A stretch of DNA of 24,940 nucleotides from a virus. Below are positions 3,751 through 19,380 of the stretch, one piece after another. Each line of letters opens with the position of its first letter. Within the stretch, counting starts at the first letter, position 1. Position numbers and translations under genes: made by a program. The DNA lies in the IMG/VR virus record IMGVR_UViG_3300043811_000163, positions 88,534 through 113,473 of that record; one strand, 5' to 3'. The notes beneath the pieces are model-generated. The model did no database searches. It saw only the letters and a list, made by a program, of their open reading frames with translations, and was not told where the DNA came from.

Positions 3751-4091
3751 GCACCGATCCGAACACATTGCATTGCCGCGAGGACCCGACGAGCTGTCGC
3801 GGCGAAAGTTACTGCGCGTGCCAGTGCGACCAATGCAAGGCGGCGTGGGAGGCCGGCCGAGAATTCTACGCCATAAAGCTTCTGAAGCGCGCTTCGCAAA
3901 TTCTCGGGCGAAGCGTGACGGATGTGGCCGATGAAGCACGCTGCAAAGTGCTTTTTCGTGTGATCGAGGCGCTAGGCTGGACCAGCGAGAACGCTACGCC
4001 AGATGACGAAGAGAAGATCTTGGAAGAGATCCGGTCGCGTTCCAGAGAACTCGCGCATTTGCTCGGCATCATGAAATCGTGGCGCGGATGA
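3747..4091 (+). CDS. hypothetical protein, Cys-rich N-terminus
   Basis: ATG 3747 overlaps the upstream stop (ATGA); CACQCDQC motif. Confidence 0.6.
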   Translation: MSTDPNTLHCREDPTSCRGESYCACQCDQCKAAWEAGREFYAIKLLKRASQILGRSVTDVADEARCKVLFRVIEALGWTSENATPDDEEKILEEIRSRSRELAHLLGIMKSWRG

Positions 4092-12376: not shown

Positions 12377-12404
12377 TTGACCCGGCATCGGACCCTGCTA
12401 CGTT
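12377..12404 (+). promoter_or_regulatory. sigma70-type promoter of the tRNA region
   Basis: TTGACC (12377-12382), 16 bp, TGc-TACGTT extended -10 (12399-12404). Confidence 0.55.
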
Positions 12405-12417
12405 CACCTCGTCAGCC

Positions 12418-12549
12418 ATGAGAACGATCGTCCTCAAGCGCGAAACAGCCCAGCGGAAATGGTCCGCGGCGTATTCGTGCGTCTTTGGGACCATCGATAC
12501 GCATGCGTCAGCCCTCCCCGCGAGCAATCCAGTGGAGGGCAGTATGTAG
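12418..12549 (+). CDS. putative leader peptide (43 aa, all 20 amino acids)
   Basis: MRTIVLKRETAQRKWSAAYSCVFGTIDTHASALPASNPVEGSM*; stop abuts the antiterminator arm. Confidence 0.7.
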   Translation: MRTIVLKRETAQRKWSAAYSCVFGTIDTHASALPASNPVEGSM

Positions 12550-12617
12550 GGACGGCGCGTAGAGAGACTTCCTGAAGCGCCGTCCCGAAACTCGAGACCG
12601 GCGCTTTTCGCATTTCT
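12549..12617 (+). terminator. attenuator: competing antiterminator and intrinsic terminator
   Basis: GGGACGGCGC (12549-12558) is the perfect complement of GCGCCGTCCC (12577-12586); alternatively AAGCGCCG (12575-12582) pairs CGGCGCTT (12599-12606) with a T-rich tail. Confidence 0.7.
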
Positions 12618-12695
12618 GGGGCTCGAAAGAGCATGGTGCTCAAGCGGACTGTAACCCCGCGGCTTCGGCGAGCTGTTCGATTCAGCCGGGCCCCA
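12618..12695 (+). tRNA. tRNA-Tyr(GTA)
   Basis: GGGGCTC/GGGCCCC acceptor, loop CTGTAAC, TTCGATT T-loop. Confidence 0.7.
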
Positions 12696-12763
12696 CTGGA
12701 GAGAGACGATGGAACGCAGACTCAAACGCAAGCGCGCGCCGAGCAAGCCGGCGCAGAAATCGA

Positions 12764-12836
12764 GGGCCCGAAGCTCAATGGGATGAGCAGCGGATTTTTA
12801 TCCCGCGCGACGTCGGTTCGAATCCGACCGGGCTCA
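12764..12836 (+). tRNA. tRNA-Lys(TTT)
   Basis: GGGCCCG/CGGGCTC, loop TTTTTAT, GGTTCGAATCC. Confidence 0.8.
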
Positions 12837-12843
12837 CGACTAC

Positions 12844-12914
12844 GAATCCGTAGTTCAACGGCAGAACGGTCGGCCCTTACCCGATTCATGAGCGTTCGAT
12901 TCGCTCCGGATTCA
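12844..12914 (+). tRNA. tRNA-Lys(CTT)
   Basis: GAATCCG/CGGATTC, loop CCCTTAC. Confidence 0.8.
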
Positions 12915-12915
12915 C

Positions 12916-12986
12916 TGGCGCTTCGTCCAACGGTAGGACAGCGGTTTCTGACACCGTCAATCAGCGTTCGATTCGCTGAGCGCCAA
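12916..12986 (+). tRNA. tRNA-Gln(CTG)
   Basis: TGGCGCT/AGCGCCA, loop TTCTGAC. Confidence 0.85.
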
Positions 12987-13123
12987 CCGCGGCATCCGTT
13001 TCGGTGCCACGATCCTTGACAACCCCGAGCGATGCACTCGGACCGAACGAGCATGACGGCGACCCGAACGGGCGCGGCGGTCTCCTCGTGTGACGCGGCG
13101 CGGGGTAGTTGACCGCGTCTTTT

Positions 13124-13194
13124 TCCGGTGGCGCCTAATGGTGGGCACTCGGTTGTTGCCCGAGACTAAAGGAGTTCGATTCTCTTCGCCGGAG
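13124..13194 (+). tRNA. tRNA-Asn(GTT)
   Basis: TCCGGTG/CGCCGGA-G, loop TTGTTGC. Confidence 0.8.
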
Positions 13195-13210
13195 CGGATA
13201 CAATGTAGCG

Positions 13211-13603
13211 ATGAAGAACGGTCCGTACGAGCTAGTGAAAGCGCCTGCGGAATACCCTGGCTTCAAGTACCGCGGCAGGTACGTGTACGAGCATCATCTC
13301 GTATGGTGGCAGAACACGGGCGAGGTAGTTCCGACCGACGCAGACTACCTGATCCACCACAAGAATCACGATCGAAGGGACAACGCGTTCTCGAATCTCG
13401 AGAAAAAGCAACGCGGTGCTCATACGCGAGAACACATTCTTGAATCGAGAGCGGCCAAGACAGTGGTCGTTCAGTGTGGCTGGTGCAGCCGCGACGTCGT
13501 GAAGTTTGAGCGTGTCGTGCGTCGCCAACAGAAACGAGGTCAGAGAGTATTTTTCTGTTGCGCTTCACACGGGACCAAGTATCAGTTCAACGGTCCGAGA
13601 TAA
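13211..13603 (+). CDS. HNH homing-type endonuclease
   Basis: YVYEHHLVW...IHHKNHDRRDNAFSNLE; C-terminal CGWC...FCC. Confidence 0.85.
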   Translation: MKNGPYELVKAPAEYPGFKYRGRYVYEHHLVWWQNTGEVVPTDADYLIHHKNHDRRDNAFSNLEKKQRGAHTREHILESRAAKTVVVQCGWCSRDVVKFERVVRRQQKRGQRVFFCCASHGTKYQFNGPR

Positions 13604-13672
13604 GCTGGATCGCGTCCGGGACCAACGCTGTTTCGTACTCAGCGCAGGGGAGTCCGACTCTCCCATCCAGCT
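13604..13672 (+). tRNA. tRNA-Thr(CGT)-like, degenerate
   Basis: GCTGGAT/ATCCAGC acceptor, loop TTCGTAC, weak D arm, TCCGACT T-loop. Confidence 0.55.
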
Positions 13673-13717
13673 CTGACCCATGCCCGCCCACGTGGCGAGC
13701 CGAAAAGGAGAACGAAA

Positions 13718-15361
13718 ATGCGATACGCACAGCATTTCAACCCGTACTCGACGCCGCAGAGTGAATCGGCGAAGCCGGGTCAAGTCGAAAACTCTGCCGG
13801 CGGCTACGTGTTCGCGGTCGACAAGTGGACGCAGCTCGATCGGTTTCTCATCCTCGGATGCGAGGGCAACACGTACTACGCGAGCGAGTACGAGATGACG
13901 CGCGACAACGCGAAGAACGTGCTCGCGTGCATCGACGAAGACGGAGCTCGCGCGGTGGCTCGCATCGTCGAAATCAGCCACGCGGGACGAGCCCCGAAGA
14001 ACGATGCTGCAGTATTTGCACTGGCGCTCGCTGCATCCGCAGAGAAGCCGGAGACGCGGGCCGCTGCGCTCGCGGCCCTGCCGAAGGTCTGCAGGATCGG
14101 CACGCATCTCTTTCAGTTCGTCGATGCGGTGCAAGGCTTCCGCGGATGGGGGCCCGGTCTCTGCAAAGCGATCGGCAAGTGGTACACGGATCGATCGCCG
14201 GCCTCGCTCGCGAACCAAGTGCTCAAGTACCAATCGCGCGAGAAGTGGTCGCACAAGGACGTGCTTCGACTCTCGCACCCGTCGGTCTCGAGTCTGGAGC
14301 ACGCGGCCATCTTCGAATGGGTTCGGGCAGGCATGTCGGGCTTCGAGGCGCGCGAGGTCGCTCGAAAGAGCGCTGGACGCGTGGACAAGTACGAGCCGGC
14401 GAATCGGGAGGCGCTTCCGAAGCTGCTCTCGGCATACGAAGAGATGAAGGCGGCGAAGTTCACCAAGGACGTCGTCAAGCTGATCGTCGATCACGGCTTC
14501 ACGCGCGAGATGGTGCCGACCCAGCACTTGAATTCGCCGGAAGTCTGGGAAGCGATGCTCATCGACATGCCGATGACGGCGATGATCCGCAATCTCGGCA
14601 AGATGAGCTCGATCGGAGTCATCAAGCCGCTGTCGAATGCGGCCATGAAGGTGGCGGCGTCCCTCGGAGATCGAGACGCACTGAAGAAGGCGCGCGTTCA
14701 CCCGATCGCGCTGCTCTCGGCGCTCAAGGTCTACGAGCAGGGTCACGGTGAAAAAGGCAAGCTCTCGTGGACGGCCGAACGGAGCGTCGTCGATGCGCTC
14801 AACGAAGCCTTCTATCTCGCCTTCGACCACCTCGAACCGACGGGCAAAAACTGGCTCATCGCGGTCGACATCTCCGGCTCGATGGCCGCGGGAAACATCG
14901 CGGGCATGCCGGGGCTCACTCCGCGTGAGGCCGCAGCGGCCATGGCGATGGTCACGGCGCGAACCGAGAAGAACTGGCACGCGATCGGCTTCACGCAGCG
15001 GGTCGTGCCGATCACGATCTCGCCGAAGCAGCGTCTCGACGACGTCGTGCGAGCCATCAGCCAGAACGTCGGAGAGCAGACCGACGCGGCGCAGCCGATG
15101 CTGTATGCGGCGCGCGAGAAGCTGGGCGTAGACGCATTCGCGCTCTACACCGACAACGAGACCTGGGCCGGCGCGATTCATCCGTTTCAGGCTCTTCAGC
15201 AGTACCGGCAGAAGCTGGGTCGCCACCAGTCCAAGTGCATGGCGGTCGCCATGACCGCGACGCGATTCAGTATCGCGGATCCAAGCGATGCGGGGATGCT
15301 CGACGTCGTAGGTTTTGACGCGGCGACGCCTCAAATCATGGCCGACTTCGCGAGGGCTTGA
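13718..15361 (+). CDS. rsr: Ro60/TROVE-domain RNA-binding protein
   Basis: QVENSAGGYVF, LDRFLILG, KYQSREKWSHKDVLRLSHP, MPMTAMIRNLGKM, vWA MIDAS DISGSM, TDNET, LDVVGFD; AAGGAG RBS. Confidence 0.95.
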   Translation: MRYAQHFNPYSTPQSESAKPGQVENSAGGYVFAVDKWTQLDRFLILGCEGNTYYASEYEMTRDNAKNVLACIDEDGARAVARIVEISHAGRAPKNDAAVFALALAASAEKPETRAAALAALPKVCRIGTHLFQFVDAVQGFRGWGPGLCKAIGKWYTDRSPASLANQVLKYQSREKWSHKDVLRLSHPSVSSLEHAAIFEWVRAGMSGFEAREVARKSAGRVDKYEPANREALPKLLSAYEEMKAAKFTKDVVKLIVDHGFTREMVPTQHLNSPEVWEAMLIDMPMTAMIRNLGKMSSIGVIKPLSNAAMKVAASLGDRDALKKARVHPIALLSALKVYEQGHGEKGKLSWTAERSVVDALNEAFYLAFDHLEPTGKNWLIAVDISGSMAAGNIAGMPGLTPREAAAAMAMVTARTEKNWHAIGFTQRVVPITISPKQRLDDVVRAISQNVGEQTDAAQPMLYAAREKLGVDAFALYTDNETWAGAIHPFQALQQYRQKLGRHQSKCMAVAMTATRFSIADPSDAGMLDVVGFDAATPQIMADFARA

Positions 15362-15396
15362 CCCGCGCGAGTCGATATGCGATAGAGAGTGTCGGA

Positions 15397-15455
15397 CGCC
15401 AGCCGATTGGCGAGGGTTACCTTGTACGTGCCCCTCGACACACACCATGCCGGCG
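15397..15455 (+). ncRNA. Y-RNA-like element A
   Basis: GCCGATTGG-CGAGGG-TTAC...CCCTCG-N7-CCATG, closing stem CGCCAGC/GCCGGCG; directly after Ro60. Confidence 0.55.
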
Positions 15456-15457
15456 TT

Positions 15458-15526
15458 TGAACCGAATGGAACAGCGTTACCCCCATTTAGGAATCCACGC
15501 TGATCCGATACCATGTCCGTGTTTCA
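15458..15526 (+). ncRNA. Y-RNA-like element B
   Basis: ACCGAATGG-AA-CAGCG-TTAC...CGCTG-N8-CCATG; same layout as A with a different but paired stem. Confidence 0.55.
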
Positions 15527-15529
15527 TTT

Positions 15530-15664
15530 GCCGTCCGTAGCTCAGTTGGTAGAGCGGCAGAGGCGAAAGCCTTTCGTTCTTCAATCCCATGCTCGCGCAA
15601 GCGAGCCGCATGCGGAACGTTACCATGGATCTGTAGGTCGGTGGTTCGAATCCACCCGGCGGCA
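15530..15664 (+). ncRNA. tRNA-like RNA whose anticodon arm is replaced by a Y-RNA-like domain
   Basis: canonical D arm TAGCTCAGTTGGTAGAGC, T arm GGTGGTTCGAATCCACC, acceptor GCCG(T)CCG/CGGCGGC; insert carries CGTTC-N7-CCATG then GCCGCATGC-GGAACG-TTAC. Confidence 0.7.
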
Positions 15665-15669
15665 CTCTT

Positions 15670-15745
15670 GTCCCATTCGTCTAGTGGTCCAGGACCCGAG
15701 CCTCTCGAGCTCGCGACAAGCGTTCGATTCGCTTATGGGACGCCA
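15670..15745 (+). tRNA. tRNA-Glu(CTC)
   Basis: GTCCCAT/ATGGGAC-G-CCA, loop CTCTCGA. Confidence 0.88.
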
Positions 15746-15746
15746 C

Positions 15747-15816
15747 GGCCCGTAACTGATGGTTTGGTGGCCTGCCCTTCAAGCAGGCAGCGGGAGTTCG
15801 ATTCTCCCACGGGTCA
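15747..15816 (+). tRNA. tRNA-Glu(TTC)
   Basis: GGCCCGT/ACGGGTC, loop CCTTCAA, degenerate D arm. Confidence 0.7.
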
Positions 15817-15956
15817 CCCCGCGATTGCTGGTGCCGGGATGTGAAGGTTGCGATGAGGAAGCCCGAGTTTTCTGATCCACGCGTGCACGGCGGATCGGTG
15901 CGGGAAGAGTCGTCGAGGACGCGCATCTCTCCGGTTCGATTCCGCGACGGGATTCC

Positions 15957-16032
15957 GCTGAGCGAGCAAGTCTGGTGATTGCGCCGGTCTGAAAAGCCGG
16001 ACAACTCCGTTCGATTCGGAGGCTCAGCACCA
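15957..16032 (+). tRNA. tRNA-Phe(GAA)
   Basis: GCTGAGC/GCTCAGC-A-CCA, loop CTGAAAA. Confidence 0.85.
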
Positions 16033-16101
16033 GGGTGTAGCGTAAAGGCTGCGCGCTCCGTTCGGGCCGGAGAGGAGGCGGATCGTTCCCGCCCACCCTG
16101 A
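16031..16101 (+). tRNA. tRNA-Pro(CGG)
   Basis: CAGGGTG/CACCCTG-A, loop TTCGGGC; overlaps the CCA of tRNA-Phe by 2 nt. Confidence 0.75.
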
Positions 16102-16106
16102 CTCAT

Positions 16107-16179
16107 GGTGTCCATGGTGTAGCGGTTGCACGCGTGATTGTGGCTCACGAAGAGACGAGTTCAACTCTCGCTGGACACC
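16107..16179 (+). tRNA. tRNA-His(GTG)
   Basis: G-1 plus GTGTCCA/TGGACAC-C73, loop TTGTGGC. Confidence 0.85.
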
Positions 16180-16184
16180 CAAAT

Positions 16185-16256
16185 CCCCTCGGCTCGCCGG
16201 ATGCGAGCGGCGCTTTCCTACAGCGCGCGGGCCGTGTTCGACTCACGGCGAGGGGA
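16185..16256 (+). tRNA. tRNA-Arg(CCT)
   Basis: CCCCTCG/CGAGGGG, loop TTCCTAC. Confidence 0.75.
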
Positions 16257-16262
16257 CGAATG

Positions 16263-16337
16263 GGCTCGTGACGCGATCAGCATCGCGACTGCACTGTCGA
16301 TGCAGCGAAATGGGGGCAGCACCCATACGAGCCGCCA
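16263..16337 (+). tRNA. tRNA-Asp(GTC)
   Basis: GGCTCGT/ACGAGCC-G-CCA, loop CTGTCGA, atypical T-loop GGCAGCA. Confidence 0.7.
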
Positions 16338-16338
16338 C

Positions 16339-16407
16339 GGGTTTCAGGTCATGGTGACCAATCGGATTCCAACACCGAAGGACAGCGTTCGATTCGCTGG
16401 AGACCCG
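16339..16407 (+). tRNA. tRNA-Trp(CCA)
   Basis: GGGTTTC/GAGACCC-G, loop TTCCAAC. Confidence 0.7.
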
Positions 16408-16411
16408 CTAC

Positions 16412-16481
16412 GGGGGTGTGCGACGGGCTCGCGGCCGATCCTTGCAAGATCGTGCATCTGGTTTCGATACCAGCACCTCCA
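16412..16481 (+). tRNA. tRNA-Ala(TGC)
   Basis: GGGGGTG/CACCTCC-A with the G3:U70 Ala identity pair, loop CTTGCAA. Confidence 0.8.
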
Positions 16482-16485
16482 CTTT

Positions 16486-16553
16486 GCCCATGTGCCATGG
16501 TGGCGGCCGTCCTCGGTAAGGACGTCTCGCGAGTTCGATCCTCGACGTGGGCT
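16486..16553 (+). tRNA. tRNA-Thr(GGT)
   Basis: GCCCATG/CGTGGGC, loop TCGGTAA. Confidence 0.7.
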
Positions 16554-16559
16554 CTATTC

Positions 16560-16630
16560 GCCGGTCGAAGCATCATGGTGATGCACTCGGCTTGTATCCG
16601 AGAGGTGCGGTTCGATTCCGACGACCGGCT
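16560..16630 (+). tRNA. tRNA-Thr(TGT)
   Basis: GCCGGTC/GACCGGC, loop CTTGTAT. Confidence 0.75.
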
Positions 16631-16635
16631 CTATT

Positions 16636-16706
16636 GCGACCATCGTCCAACGGTAAGACCGCTGACTTCCATTCAGCAGATGCCGATTCGATTTCGGCTG
16701 GTCGCT
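16636..16706 (+). tRNA. tRNA-Gly(TCC)
   Basis: GCGACCA/TGGTCGC-T, loop CTTCCAT. Confidence 0.82.
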
Positions 16707-16711
16707 CAAGT

Positions 16712-16785
16712 GCGGGTGTAGCTCGAAGGTCGAGCACGTGGTTGCCATCCACGAGGCGTGGGTCCGATTCCCATCATCCGCTCCA
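16712..16785 (+). tRNA. tRNA-Gly(GCC)
   Basis: GCGGGTG/CATCCGC-T-CCA, loop TTGCCAT. Confidence 0.88.
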
Positions 16786-16786
16786 T

Positions 16787-16862
16787 GACGAGGTAGCCAA
16801 GCAAGAAAGGCAGCACGTTGCAACCGTGCCATGCGTCGGTGCAATTCCGTCCCTCGTCTCCA
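16787..16862 (+). tRNA. tRNA-Cys(GCA)
   Basis: GACGAGG/CCTCGTC-T-CCA, loop TTGCAAC. Confidence 0.85.
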
Positions 16863-16987
16863 TGATGCAGCGGCAACGTGCGTGAGTCCAAAGGATCGTG
16901 AAAATGGCCGATCACGCGCACGCCAAGCGTTTGCATCGAGTCGAAAGACTCCCGCCCGCCTCGGGGCGCGGTGACTGCCGAGGCATT

Positions 16988-17058
16988 GCTTCCGTCTCGG
17001 CGGACCCGAGCTGTCGGTTTCTATCCGACGTGTGCAGTTTCGACTACTGCCGGAAGCA
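16988..17058 (+). tRNA. tRNA-Arg(TCT)
   Basis: GCTTCCG/CGGAAGC, loop TTTCTAT. Confidence 0.72.
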
Positions 17059-17061
17059 CTT

Positions 17062-17133
17062 CTGCTCGTCGTGGCGGATTCCACGCTCTCGAGTGCGAAT
17101 CGAGATGTCGCAGTTCAACTCTGCGCGAGCAGG
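17062..17133 (+). tRNA. tRNA-Arg(GCG)
   Basis: CTGCTCG/CGAGCAG, loop GTGCGAA. Confidence 0.7.
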
Positions 17134-17137
17134 CTAC

Positions 17138-17208
17138 GCCTTCGTCCATGCGGATCATGGCCCGACGCTTCGAACGTTGGTGACTCGGCTCGACTCCGAG
17201 CGAAGGTG
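17138..17208 (+). tRNA. tRNA-Arg(TCG)
   Basis: GCCTTCG/CGAAGGT, loop CTTCGAA. Confidence 0.7.
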
Positions 17209-17209
17209 C

Positions 17210-17280
17210 CGCGGGGCAGCCGGGGACGGCAGCTCGGTCTCATAAGCCAAGCCAGCCACGTTCGACTCGTGGGCCCGCAA
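17210..17280 (+). tRNA. tRNA-Met(CAT), initiator-like
   Basis: CGCGGG.../...CCCGCA-A with C1:A72 mismatch, loop CTCATAA. Confidence 0.65.
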
Positions 17281-17281
17281 C

Positions 17282-17350
17282 GCCGATGATCCTCGGAGGA
17301 GGCGCCGTTTCATATGCGGCAGCAAGAGCGTTCGATTCGCTCCATCGGCA
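17282..17350 (+). tRNA. tRNA-Met(CAT), elongator or Ile2
   Basis: GCCGATG/CATCGGC, loop TTCATAT. Confidence 0.7.
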
Positions 17351-17351
17351 C

Positions 17352-17419
17352 TGGAGGTTACCTGGCGGGAGCAGCTCTCCTACAAAGAGCAGCGACGCGT
17401 TCGATTCGCGTACCTCCAA
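17352..17419 (+). tRNA. tRNA-Val(TAC)
   Basis: TGGAGGT/ACCTCCA, loop CCTACAA, reduced D arm. Confidence 0.65.
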
Positions 17420-17420
17420 C

Positions 17421-17501
17421 CGGACGTCACCTAGGCCGGACGGGATCCGGCGCCCGTCTTATGAGCGGGTCGGCTTGGTGGTTCGACTCCACGACGTCCG
17501 A
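17421..17501 (+). tRNA. tRNA-Ile(TAT)-like
   Basis: CGGACGT/ACGTCCG, loop CTTATGA, extra nucleotides before the D arm. Confidence 0.6.
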
Positions 17502-17509
17502 CGAATAGA

Positions 17510-17581
17510 GCGAGACACGCCATCTGGTGAAGGCACCGGCCCGACGCGCCGGACAGGAGAGTTCGATCCTCTCGTCTCGCA
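17510..17581 (+). tRNA. tRNA-Val(GAC)
   Basis: GCGAGAC/GTCTCGC, loop CCGACGC. Confidence 0.75.
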
Positions 17582-17585
17582 CAAC

Positions 17586-17657
17586 GGGCGTAGATGGTCT
17601 GGTCGACCTTGGAACCCTGATAAGGATCCTGGCAGGATTCGATTTCCTGTACGCCCA
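17586..17657 (+). tRNA. tRNA-Ile(GAT)
   Basis: GGGCGTA/TACGCCC, loop CTGATAA. Confidence 0.75.
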
Positions 17658-17681
17658 CCCCGTGCTATAGAGAGCAGCGCT

Positions 17682-18209
17682 ATGGAGCCGCAGGTTTTGG
17701 TCTTGAACGTCTGGATGCAGCCGCACGCCATTTACACGTGGCAGGACGCGATCGTTGCGCTCTACAAGGGCAACGTCGACGTGCTCGAGGAGTACGAGGC
17801 GACCGTTTCATCCCCGTCGGTCACGCTGCAGATCCCGGCCGTCATCAAGCTGCGCAAGACGCTGTCAACGCACAAGAAGGGCCTGAAATTCAGCCGAATG
17901 AACGTGCTGACTCGCGACGGTCAACGCTGCTGCTACTGCGGTCAGCGCGGCTCTCTTCGCGATCTCAATTACGATCACGTTCTTCCGCGATCACGCGGTG
18001 GGACCACGACTTGGTTGAATATCGTGACGGCGCACCGCGGGTGCAATACACGGAAGGGCAATAAGACCCCTGCCGAAGCGGGGCTCAAGATGCACTTTCA
18101 GCCGCATGTTCCGCGGAGTCTTCCGATGGCGAGGCCGTTTCTCATCGATCTCGAGAAGGCGCCGCCGCAGTGGCTGCCGTACTTGACGCAGAGTGCGGAG
18201 ACGGCATGA
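17682..18209 (+). CDS. HNH endonuclease (McrA-like)
   Basis: VLVLN...RDGQRCCYCG...DHVLPRSRGG.TTWLNIV...CNTRKGNKTP; ATG 17682 chosen because the upstream part of the tracked ORF is tRNA. Confidence 0.88.
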   Translation: MEPQVLVLNVWMQPHAIYTWQDAIVALYKGNVDVLEEYEATVSSPSVTLQIPAVIKLRKTLSTHKKGLKFSRMNVLTRDGQRCCYCGQRGSLRDLNYDHVLPRSRGGTTTWLNIVTAHRGCNTRKGNKTPAEAGLKMHFQPHVPRSLPMARPFLIDLEKAPPQWLPYLTQSAETA

Positions 18210-18511
18210 ACTGGGCGACGCCACACATCGAATCGCTCAAGCGCGGCACGATCGTGCAGTTTCGGCCGAAGGGAGATTCGATGTCCGGCCGGATCGAGAA
18301 CGGCCAGCTCGTGACCGTGCATCCTGTGGACGATGCGACACTGATCGAAGTCGGCGACATCGTCCTCGTGACGATCGGCGGGTGGACCTACGTGCATCTC
18401 GTCAAGGCGATCAATGGGCCGCTCTATCAAATCGGCAACAATCGAGGTCGCATCAATGGGTGGGCGCATCGAGAAAAGATTCATGGCAAGGTCATCAAGG
18501 TCGAGCCGTGA
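18206..18511 (+). CDS. S24/S26-family peptidase-like protein
   Basis: GDSMSGRI motif, VGDIVL, HLVK; ATGA overlap with the HNH gene. Confidence 0.7.
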   Translation: MNWATPHIESLKRGTIVQFRPKGDSMSGRIENGQLVTVHPVDDATLIEVGDIVLVTIGGWTYVHLVKAINGPLYQIGNNRGRINGWAHREKIHGKVIKVEP

Positions 18512-18514
18512 ACT

Positions 18515-18597
18515 GGAGAGCGAACCGCGCGGGGCGCGGGCCCGGTTGGAAGCCGGTGCGGACCGCAAGGTCTGGTTTTCGAGTAACCCGCTCTCCG
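18515..18597 (+). tRNA. tRNA-Ser(GGA)
   Basis: GGAGAGC/GCTCTCC-G, loop TTGGAAG, long variable arm. Confidence 0.8.
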
Positions 18598-18598
18598 C

Positions 18599-18681
18599 GG
18601 AGAGAAAACCGATCAGGGATCGGCGCGGCTTTGAATACCGAGGGGCGAGCAATCGCTGAGGGTCGGGACCTCTTCTCTCCT
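18599..18681 (+). tRNA. tRNA-Ser(TGA)
   Basis: GGAGAGA/TCTCTCC, loop TTTGAAT, long variable arm. Confidence 0.7.
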
Positions 18682-18687
18682 CGAGAC

Positions 18688-18770
18688 GGAAGGTGAACTC
18701 GCCAGGGGCGAGAGCGGCTTCGAATACCGCATGGCGCTTCGGCGCTGAGATTCGAGTTCTCCGCCTTCCA
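18688..18770 (+). tRNA. tRNA-Ser(CGA)
   Basis: GGAAGGT/GCCTTCC, loop TTCGAAT, long variable arm. Confidence 0.75.
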
Positions 18771-18771
18771 C

Positions 18772-18857
18772 GGAAGCAAAACAGGTCAGGGTGCCTGGAC
18801 CGCCTGCTAAGCGGCTCGCACGCGTGAGCGTGTCTGTTTCGATTACAGTTGCTTCCG
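18772..18857 (+). tRNA. tRNA-Ser(GCT)
   Basis: GGAAGCA/TGCTTCC-G, loop CTGCTAA, long variable arm. Confidence 0.8.
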
Positions 18858-18869
18858 CCCAAAATCCTC

Positions 18870-18898
18870 TTGCACTCGCTCGCGCCGCGCGCTAGGCT
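18870..18898 (+). promoter_or_regulatory. sigma70-type promoter of the Leu/Gln tRNA block
   Basis: TTGCAC (18870-18875), 17 bp, TAGGCT (18893-18898). Confidence 0.65.
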
Positions 18899-18905
18899 CT
18901 CCTCC

Positions 18906-18959
18906 GTGAGCCGACTTCTGTTGCTCCAACGCCTGCAGCTTCTAGGGCCTTTAGCCTAA
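18906..18959 (+). CDS. putative leaderless Leu/Gln-rich leader peptide (17 aa)
   Basis: GTG AGC CGA CTT CTG TTG CTC CAA CGC CTG CAG CTT CTA GGG CCT TTA GCC TAA; GTG lies at the expected +1. Confidence 0.75.
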   Translation: MSRLLLLQRLQLLGPLA

Positions 18960-18973
18960 GAAGCTCGATCTGC

Positions 18974-19049
18974 GCGCTGGTAGACCAACTCGGAAGGAGT
19001 CGATCGCCTCAAGAGCGATTCAGTGCGGGTTCGAATCCCGCCCAGCGCA
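18974..19049 (+). tRNA. tRNA-Leu(CAA), short variable arm
   Basis: GCGCTGG/CCAGCGC-A, loop CTCAAGA. Confidence 0.82.
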
Positions 19050-19050
19050 C

Positions 19051-19122
19051 TCGGGGATCGATCTAACGGCAAGACATCCGGCTTTGACCCGGACAATAGC
19101 GGTTCGAATCCGCTTCCCCGAA
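19051..19122 (+). tRNA. tRNA-Gln(TTG)
   Basis: TCGGGGA/TCCCCGA, loop CTTTGAC. Confidence 0.88.
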
Positions 19123-19123
19123 C

Positions 19124-19205
19124 GCCGGCATGGTGGAAATGGCATACCCCTGCTTGAGGTGCAGGGCCCCGCAAGGGGTTGCAGGTTCGATTCCTGTTGC
19201 CGGTA
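19124..19205 (+). tRNA. tRNA-Leu(GAG)
   Basis: GCCGGCA/TGCCGGT-A, loop TTGAGGT, long variable arm. Confidence 0.85.
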
Positions 19206-19211
19206 CGAGAT

Positions 19212-19297
19212 GCTCACCTGGCGAAATAGCAACCGCGCTGCGTTCAGACCGCAGTGGGCGCAAGCCCTTGAGGGTGCAATTCCCTCGGTGAGTACCA
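19212..19297 (+). tRNA. tRNA-Leu(CAG)
   Basis: GCTCACC/GGTGAGT-A-CCA, loop TTCAGAC, long variable arm. Confidence 0.85.
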
Positions 19298-19304
19298 GTT
19301 CAAC

Positions 19305-19380
19305 GCAGCACTCGCTCAACAGGCAGAAGCCCCGCCCTAAACGCGGTCAAGTCCCGGTTCGACTCCGGGGTGCTGCACCA
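19305..19380 (+). tRNA. tRNA-Leu(TAA), short variable arm
   Basis: GCAGCAC/GTGCTGC-A-CCA, loop CCTAAAC. Confidence 0.75.

Follow-up and report, generated by a model that had tools for sequence, protein, structure and literature searches.

A conserved Leu-rich leader ORF, predicted to be leaderless, precedes a separate Leu/Gln tRNA block in a phage tRNA array

In the leuL, ilvL, hisL and thrL leaders, a short ORF carries control codons for the amino acid that the downstream genes serve, and helices compete with one another. The available sections of PMC12360218 also describe the hisL leader-peptide attenuator, together with mgtL/mgtA, corL, tnaC and thrU-tufB, in which translation of an upstream ORF remodels the leader and termination depends on Rho without a U-tract. 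The closest known tested system is that of the mycobacterial polycysteine leaderless short-ORF attenuators (Ms5788A type), which, in the portion of the preprint at hand, control the translation of protein genes (Canestrari et al., bioRxiv 10.1101/834739). The trn operon of Anabaena, a large tRNA array, is switched on under translational stress, with TrcR as the repressor involved, and the words "leader" and "attenuation" do not occur in the accessible text of PMC10272220. The reason that phages have tRNAs, and the timing of their use, is a long-standing question; a leading proposal, according to the part of PMC10264068 consulted, is that they replace host tRNAs cut or depleted during infection, and phage tRNAs are also treated there as a counter to anticodon nucleases. 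Control of tRNA genes by a leader ORF did not appear in the literature searched, which consisted of partial texts lying mostly outside subscription journals.

The window, that is, the whole 24,940-nt stretch of DNA analyzed here, forms the tail end of a circular phage genome of 113,473 bases with a terminal overlap of 127 bases, and we refer to the locus of this phage as W. It contains a terminase, a Ro60/TROVE protein, two HNH genes, a Mu-F head protein and 30 tRNA genes (ARAGORN, default settings). Because the named relatives of the terminase sit in Myxococcales and Labilithrix genomes and the nearest relatives of the HNH protein in named genomes, among the matches listed, are Polyangiales, the host is presumably a member of the Polyangiales. 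The HNH gene was found in 211 of 401 genomes sampled from the likely host order, and the best 30 matches of that sample (L453-L482) all adjoin tRNA genes, with 2-24 of them within 1.5 kb; large HNH-linked tRNA arrays seem to be common in the cellular genomes of this order. Elsewhere in the window, an Rfam tRNA match at 15531-15663 spans 133 nt and is called by ARAGORN, with introns allowed, as His(ATG) with a 61-nt intron. Outside the window, the same genome holds a promoter with a GTG 7 nt past its -10, an ORF that we take to resemble a Pth2-type peptidyl-tRNA hydrolase, and three unusual tRNA-like genes, Phe(AAA), Ser(GCT) and Cys(GCA) (G000:C1:77208-77853).

All four Leu tRNAs of the array lie in a single block (Table 1), and the main array (12618-18861) has none. 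The tRNA calls agree with the gene order given in a preliminary description of this DNA, and its statement that the block of W lacks Leu(TAG) also holds. A Leu(TAG) gene elsewhere in the genome surfaced only at a noisy threshold that gave 88 tRNA calls and was not trusted. In both W and L090 (8733-8816), the Leu(TAA) tRNA has C rather than U just 5' of the anticodon, possibly as a form of nuclease evasion. Leu tRNAs of at most 79 nt, which have no long variable arm, make up 22 of 32 in leader-gated blocks and 144 of the 323 others in arrays.

Table 1. Features of the window, numbered from its first nucleotide
Feature	Position	Strand	Details
Partner element	12377..12617	+	promoter-like site, leader 12418-12549, U-tract terminator, then Leu-free main array
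Four Ser tRNAs closing main array	18515..18861	+	three seen only at lowered ARAGORN thresholds
Sigma70-like promoter (putative)	18870..18898	+	-35 TTGCAC 18870-18875, 17 nt, -10 TAGGCT 18893-18898
Leaderless sensor ORF (predicted)	18906..18959	+	GTG at 18906, TAA 18957-18959, 17 codons, MSRLLLLQRLQLLGPLA
Putative anti-tRNA strand, codons 4-9	18915..18932	+	gapped complement of the 5' 23 nt of the first tRNA; weak in W
Stop-spanning hairpin	18937..18965	+	present in MFE and centroid folds; no U-tract
tRNA-Leu(CAA)	18974..19050	+	77 nt, without long variable arm; first gene of the block, 14 nt past the stop
tRNA-Gln(TTG)	19051..19123	+	tRNA calls
tRNA-Leu(GAG)	19124..19206	+	tRNA calls
tRNA-Leu(CAG)	19212..19297	+	tRNA calls
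tRNA-Leu(TAA)	19305..19380	+	76 nt; C in place of U before the anticodon

The mini-ORF ahead of the block had been described as a 17-codon GTG frame with eight Leu codons in all six kinds, plus CAA and CAG, and both the sequence and a genome-wide ranking bear this out. The whole genome has 3,296 ORFs of 8-40 codons, counting both strands, and of these the mini-ORF is the sole frame with six Leu codon kinds and the one with the highest Leu fraction. In 2,000,000 random 16-codon draws from the genome trinucleotide frequencies, at least eight Leu codons occurred at a rate of ~2e-6, as did six Leu codon kinds, and the two never occurred jointly. A short ORF whose control codons fit the downstream cargo, as in a classical attenuator, is present in W and its relatives. 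No covariance model of the Rfam leader families or the T-box matched in 18862-18973 at E up to 0.1, tRNA being the only Rfam family matching in the region of the mini-ORF and block, two DNA runs yielded no leader variant, and a sequence look-up gave nothing resembling this stretch. We consider it likely that the mini-ORF is a translated codon sensor of the Leu/Gln block.

We observed relatives of this arrangement by anchoring on the HNH gene inside the W array (17682-18209), in scans that covered 33/64 and 18/64 viral parts, 1/64 metagenome parts and 4/64 genome parts; the number of relatives is accordingly at least eight. The proposed search of phage tRNA clusters for codon-matched mini-ORFs gave at least eight loci in which a separate Leu tRNA block stands behind a Leu-rich mini-ORF of diverged sequence. 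At least seven of these are HNH-anchored (L090, L141, L142, L229, L179, L182 and L188), and the eighth, L574, came from a whole-record tRNA search of records without Leu tRNAs in the anchored region. The leaders read MHTFRLSQRLRLVLPL in L090, MSRFRLGQRLLLLALR in L141, MRTFRLSARLRSLRLPA in L229 and MHRFLLSVRLRRLHQLAGSTSLR in L574, the last with six Leu codon kinds as in W, and have lengths of 26 aa in L142, 21 aa in L179, 37 aa in L182 and 17 aa in L188. Across the loci, 5-27 nt separate the stop of the mini-ORF from the first tRNA. The block of L574 comprises Leu(TAA, GAG, CAG, TAG, CAA), and that of L090 is split 3' of its second tRNA by a 4-kb insert with an ORF that is presumably transposase-like. 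L090 also has a long repeated ORF pattern at 14573-16078 that resembles a CRISPR-type repeat array.

The promoter proposed in the preliminary description ends 7 nt 5' of the GTG and fares unevenly: its spacing is kept in the relatives, but it agrees with the consensus at only 6 of 12 bases and is absent from the list of a consensus scan, so that the call rests on the shared geometry. Over the nine loci (W and eight relatives), a TTG lies 35-39 nt 5' of the start codon in seven, the -10 hexamer has A as its second and T as its sixth base in five, the start codon falls 6-10 nt past the -10 position in seven, and the frame is open in all nine; none has an SD-like motif 5' of the mini-ORF. The earlier placement of the GTG at about +1 fits this geometry in 7/9 loci but is still a prediction, namely that transcription of the W mini-ORF starts at or beside the GTG. 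The block of L090 and that of L141 run in the opposite orientation to the main array and thus need a promoter of their own. In the window, a weak hairpin and T-rich run at 18895-18912 overlaps the -10 box and the GTG and could end read-through from the main array. In L574 (about 3776-3903) the promoter first drives a structured RNA of ~100 nt with no Rfam match, and in L188 (5849-5927) it first drives the tRNA-Met behind which the leader stands, with the Leu ORF next in each case; in these two loci the Leu ORF may become leaderless after processing. Just past the Leu block of L142 lies another promoter; a GTG follows its -10 by 7 nt, and an ORF of 10 codons is present as well.

Leu-rich ORFs, defined by at least four Leu codon types, at least 18% Leu and an end no more than 40 nt 5' of a tRNA, precede 10 of 172 Leu-led tRNA starts in the fetched loci versus 16 of 1,481 other starts. 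Eight of those ten are W and the seven HNH-anchored relatives; the Leu-rich ORFs of L058 and L183 look incidental. Runs of at least three tRNAs for Leu or Gln only number 19: seven have the leader, one is the cut-off half of L090, and the remaining 11, none of which has a leader, are separated by 68-384 nt from an array tRNA ahead of them. In L309 a promoter is followed by Met, Leu and Leu tRNAs with no leader. Forty regions taken from cellular genomes in the likely host order contained no Leu leader, and neither did the regions inspected of Myxococcus phage Mx1 and Virus Rctr197k. Anchoring on Ro60/TROVE (80 loci) or on the Mu-F protein (9 loci) gave no relative with the block, DNA-pattern searches (1 locus; 48 loci) recovered the L090 contig as the only relative, and ten records searched whole for tRNAs, with selected clusters inspected, gave one stand-alone Leu block. 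Separate Thr/Glu/Gln sub-blocks at nine loci have no obvious matched leader by eye. L186 has a Leu-rich 37-codon ORF among Thr tRNAs (15147-15260), with no Leu tRNA 3' of it.

In the HNH tree (37 rows, L574 left out), W, L090, L141 and L142 group together with support 98/92. Next to this group are L166 and L169, in which no leader is present and the Leu tRNAs directly adjoin the main array, and L179, L182, L188 and L229 are placed elsewhere, among unsplit arrays. The nine loci therefore fall in at least two parts of the tree, across which the Leu leader may have a single origin.

The match between leader codons and cargo claimed earlier is good in one respect and inexact in others. CAA is present in the leader at all four loci with Gln(TTG) in the block versus none of the five without it; as judged from the leader sequences, what is sensed is CAA and not Gln in general. 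TTA occurs at all four loci with Leu(TAA), but also in two of the five leaders without it, and CTA is found in all nine leaders even though eight of the nine blocks lack Leu(TAG). Codon 6 is Leu in seven of the nine leaders, in the form of TTG, CTA, TTA or CTC, so that synonymous codons have been swapped at this position. Of the 47 Leu codons found in the first eight leaders, 14 are CTA or TTA, versus 4.3% in 57 long phage ORFs; this count is not wholly independent, since in four of the nine leaders the CTA has a second role as a pairing partner for tRNA U8-A9-G10. Because the nine loci are related, p-values overstate the evidence throughout. On balance, the codon sensor of the preliminary description stands insofar as a leaderless, cargo-matched ORF with synonymous Leu swaps is conserved in at least eight relatives, and is qualified by the inexact match.

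The main array is headed by a leader of a different kind. The leader at 12418-12549 has 43 codons for all 20 amino acids, with Leu only as two CTC codons and Gln as CAG, and an all-amino-acid leader with a U-tract terminator heads the main array in W, seven relatives and 23 other loci. These were collected as ATG ORFs of 25-62 codons covering at least 18 amino acids, followed by a hairpin and T-run (34 rows, 32 loci); L091, where the locus begins mid-array and has two conflicting candidates, was excluded, and the rule found no main-array leader in L574. A non-CTC Leu codon occurs in the main leader at none of the eight loci with a Leu leader versus all 23 without one (Fisher p 2e-7, with 21 entered for 23 and inflated by kinship). 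At the eight loci the main leader has 0-3 Leu codons, every one of them CTC, and three loci have zero; of the five main leaders folded, four (W, L179, L182 and L188) carry the remaining CTC within a stem of their own. The link to the 12418 sensor that had been claimed is thereby borne out, and this loss of Leu codons is, at the level of sequence comparison, its strongest support. Because Leu codons are lost from the main leader wherever the Leu leader exists, codon sensing appears to be split between the two. Cellular genomes from the host order hold candidate all-amino-acid leaders as well (L495, L496 and L500).

The hairpin reported to span the stop codon of W was recovered in both folds, and the leader fold was equalled by 4 of 300 codon-order shuffles. 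As had also been noted, no U-tract terminator follows it before the first tRNA in W, and none is seen in the eight relatives either. This hairpin alone is probably not the switch, because the alternative suggested by the relatives is that the ORF pairs with the 5' strand of the first tRNA. Folding predictions give the free leaders of L141, L142, L090, L229, L188 and L574 a single long hairpin that takes up this strand, with acceptor-stem probabilities of 0.00-0.14 versus 0.68-1.0 for the tRNAs alone (five tested). The predicted helix of L574 has 13 uninterrupted pairs, GGCTACACCAGTT with AGCTGGTGTAGCC (1/60 shuffles). A ribosome modeled on the first Leu codon raises the acceptor-stem probability from 0.14 to 0.93 in L141, from 0.00 to 0.98 in L090 and from 0.01 to 0.99 in L188; the stem reaches 0.40 in L229 and 0.14 in L142 and is not restored in L574. 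Mutually exclusive helices are thus clear in the models of L141, L090 and L188, partial in L229, L142 and L574, confined to the nascent RNA in W, and absent in L179 and L182, which give no clean switch.

In W, the pairing probability is 0.55-0.65 with 25-50 nt of the tRNA made and 0.01 once the tRNA is complete; the complete tRNA folds regardless (0.97 free versus 0.98 stalled), and the first tRNA ranks 16th of 32 window tRNAs as a partner of the ORF. Pairing of the nine ORFs with nt 1-13 of the first tRNA gave a combined p of 0.009 against the other tRNAs of the loci, 2e-4 against 600 pooled tRNA ends, 0.003 against synonymous recodings and 0.04 against codon-order shuffles (0.28 without L574). 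The 13-nt pairing window was picked after the folds were seen, and the own-locus test depends on its length (p 0.008 at 10 nt, 0.07 at 18 and 0.40 at 25). Tests in which leaders and tRNAs were swapped did not show significant cognate pairing (p 0.50, 0.19, 0.16, 0.08 and 0.06). In these models, the anti-tRNA helix is a tendency at the level of the family: some members have a strong helix, whereas that of W is weak and could have an effect only by trapping the RNA kinetically.

The best explanation, and one that we hold to be moderately probable, is a ribosome-read Leu/CAA gauge that turns on the separately promoted Leu/Gln(TTG) block when those tRNAs are scarce. Transcription would begin at the GTG, and 70S ribosomes would load there. 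With charged tRNA-Leu abundant, the ribosome would run as far as the stop, 5-27 nt 5' of the first tRNA, and depart. The vacated ORF would then form the long hairpin, whose outer helix would seize the acceptor/D strand at the 5' end of the tRNA before its 3' strand exists, and the misfolded transcript would be terminated early, most likely by Rho, or degraded. A ribosome stalled at a Leu or CAA codon would instead mask the capturing strand, so that the first tRNA could fold and the block be transcribed and processed. Given a translated codon sensor, the modeled anti-tRNA switch seems to us evenly poised. Rho is favored because a U-tract is absent, and is the likely executor of the output step by elimination and by analogy to mgtL and tufB as presented in the available part of PMC12360218. 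A rut site would be a C-rich, G-poor and unstructured stretch that translation unmasks; the first 33 nt have more C than G in eight of the nine loci, but only mildly so in W (11 versus 9).

The same sensor could have another output, in which the stop hairpin serves as a U-less terminator or pause site, or in which control is purely post-transcriptional, through access of RNase P or RNase III to the first tRNA; we consider this rather unlikely. Most loci do have a stem covering the stop or immediately 5' of it, which beats shuffles in W, in L142 (2/300) and in L229 (4/300), the stop, 5-27 nt from the tRNA, falls in or close to a ribosome footprint, and Rho (TIGR00767) scored above cut-off in only two of five Polyangiales genomes, the host itself being a prediction. 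Hairpin strength is, however, not significant in five of eight loci, a stall at codons 4-6 of W leaves the modeled hairpin intact, and a processing block on the first tRNA would not obviously govern tRNAs 2-5. A rival that dispenses with translation supposes that the segment is kept for its RNA, which would be antisense to the first tRNA or form a structural 5' cap, with the Leu codons as a by-product. It would account for the missing SD motifs and for the fact that the complement of the tRNA 5' end reads Arg-Leu(CTA) in four of the nine loci, but the placement of the start codon past the -10 and the open frames speak against it, W combines six Leu codon kinds with the weakest pairing, and both the tracking of CAA and the Leu-codon loss from the main leader would go unexplained; we regard it as very improbable.

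Arg-X-Arg is the macrolide motif of arrest peptides. That the peptide itself acts, either as a Leu/Arg-rich small protein or as an antibiotic-sensing arrest peptide, would suit the composition of eight leaders (47 Leu and 29 Arg of 159 codons) and the Arg-Leu-Arg of L090, L229 and L188. The peptides are nevertheless 16-37 aa long with little conservation of residues, rare synonymous codons are enriched, and Arg-X-Arg is absent from W, all of which makes such a role very improbable. Finally, the ORF could be a chance occurrence or a decayed relic, with the block constitutive or read through from the main array. The weak promoter match, the Ser tRNAs that end 8 nt 5' of the -35 and the weak anti-tRNA helix of W would agree with this, whereas the low chance frequency of each feature, the first rank among the genomic ORFs, the enrichment before Leu-led starts and the main-leader contrast do not; the W ORF is moreover intact and, with that of L574, the most codon-complete of the set. 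We judge chance or a relic to be very improbable.

What can be read from the DNA itself is how the Leu leader is built, that it is conserved, that its codons track the cargo and that the main leader shows a complementary loss of Leu codons. More tentatively, and with somewhat less than even confidence, we propose that these phages monitor tRNAs with two gauges read by ribosomes. One, of the terminator type and covering all amino acids, would serve the main array; the other, a leaderless Leu/CAA leader that has no terminator, would have the first tRNA gene as its switch, with the sensor ORF seizing the acceptor strand of that tRNA unless a ribosome stalls there. A sensor written in the codons of its own block, codons that the other sensor has lost, is sequence evidence for tRNAs supplied on demand and family by family. 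It suggests that Leu tRNAs face a pressure of their own in myxobacterial hosts, and that an attenuator can use a tRNA as its regulatory strand. If the reading with two gauges is true, the arrangement would be a codon-family-specific counter to Leu starvation or to defenses that cleave tRNA-Leu. The accessible portions of PMC13434031 and PMC13056530 name no Leu-specific nuclease, and a link to Schlafen-type nucleases was dropped as unsupported, with "Leu" giving 0 matches in the available text of PMC13056530.

Despite its likeness to the classical leaders leuL, ilvL, hisL and thrL in having a short ORF with control codons matched to the downstream function, the Leu leader differs from them in that it has no hairpin and U-tract terminator, no SD-led start, and tRNA genes as its cargo; the main-array leader at 12418 fits these attenuators much better. 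In contrast to mgtL, corL, tnaC and thrU-tufB, as far as the sections of PMC12360218 at hand describe them, the leader is just 60-120 nt long with no rut site identified, and a tRNA polycistron lies downstream. The control of the Anabaena trn operon, in the part of PMC10272220 available, is exerted by a DNA-binding repressor at the promoter and is not codon-specific. With the Ms5788A type, as set out in the portion of the preprint consulted, the Leu leader shares a leaderless AUG/GUG short ORF loaded with the codons of one amino acid and, in the mechanism proposed here, a stalled ribosome that would block an inhibitory duplex with no need for an intrinsic terminator. The Ms5788A duplex, unlike ours, masks the ribosome-binding site of a protein gene; since the cargo here is tRNA genes, the output must be transcription or processing, and the leader further differs in sampling all synonymous codons and in being phage-borne. 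Because neither the classical terminator nor SD sequestration is found, we set the Leu leader apart from both classes despite its predicted behavior as a ribosome-mediated attenuator. The conserved, codon-matched leader is real, and we describe it as a probable variant of leader-peptide attenuation that would act on tRNA genes.
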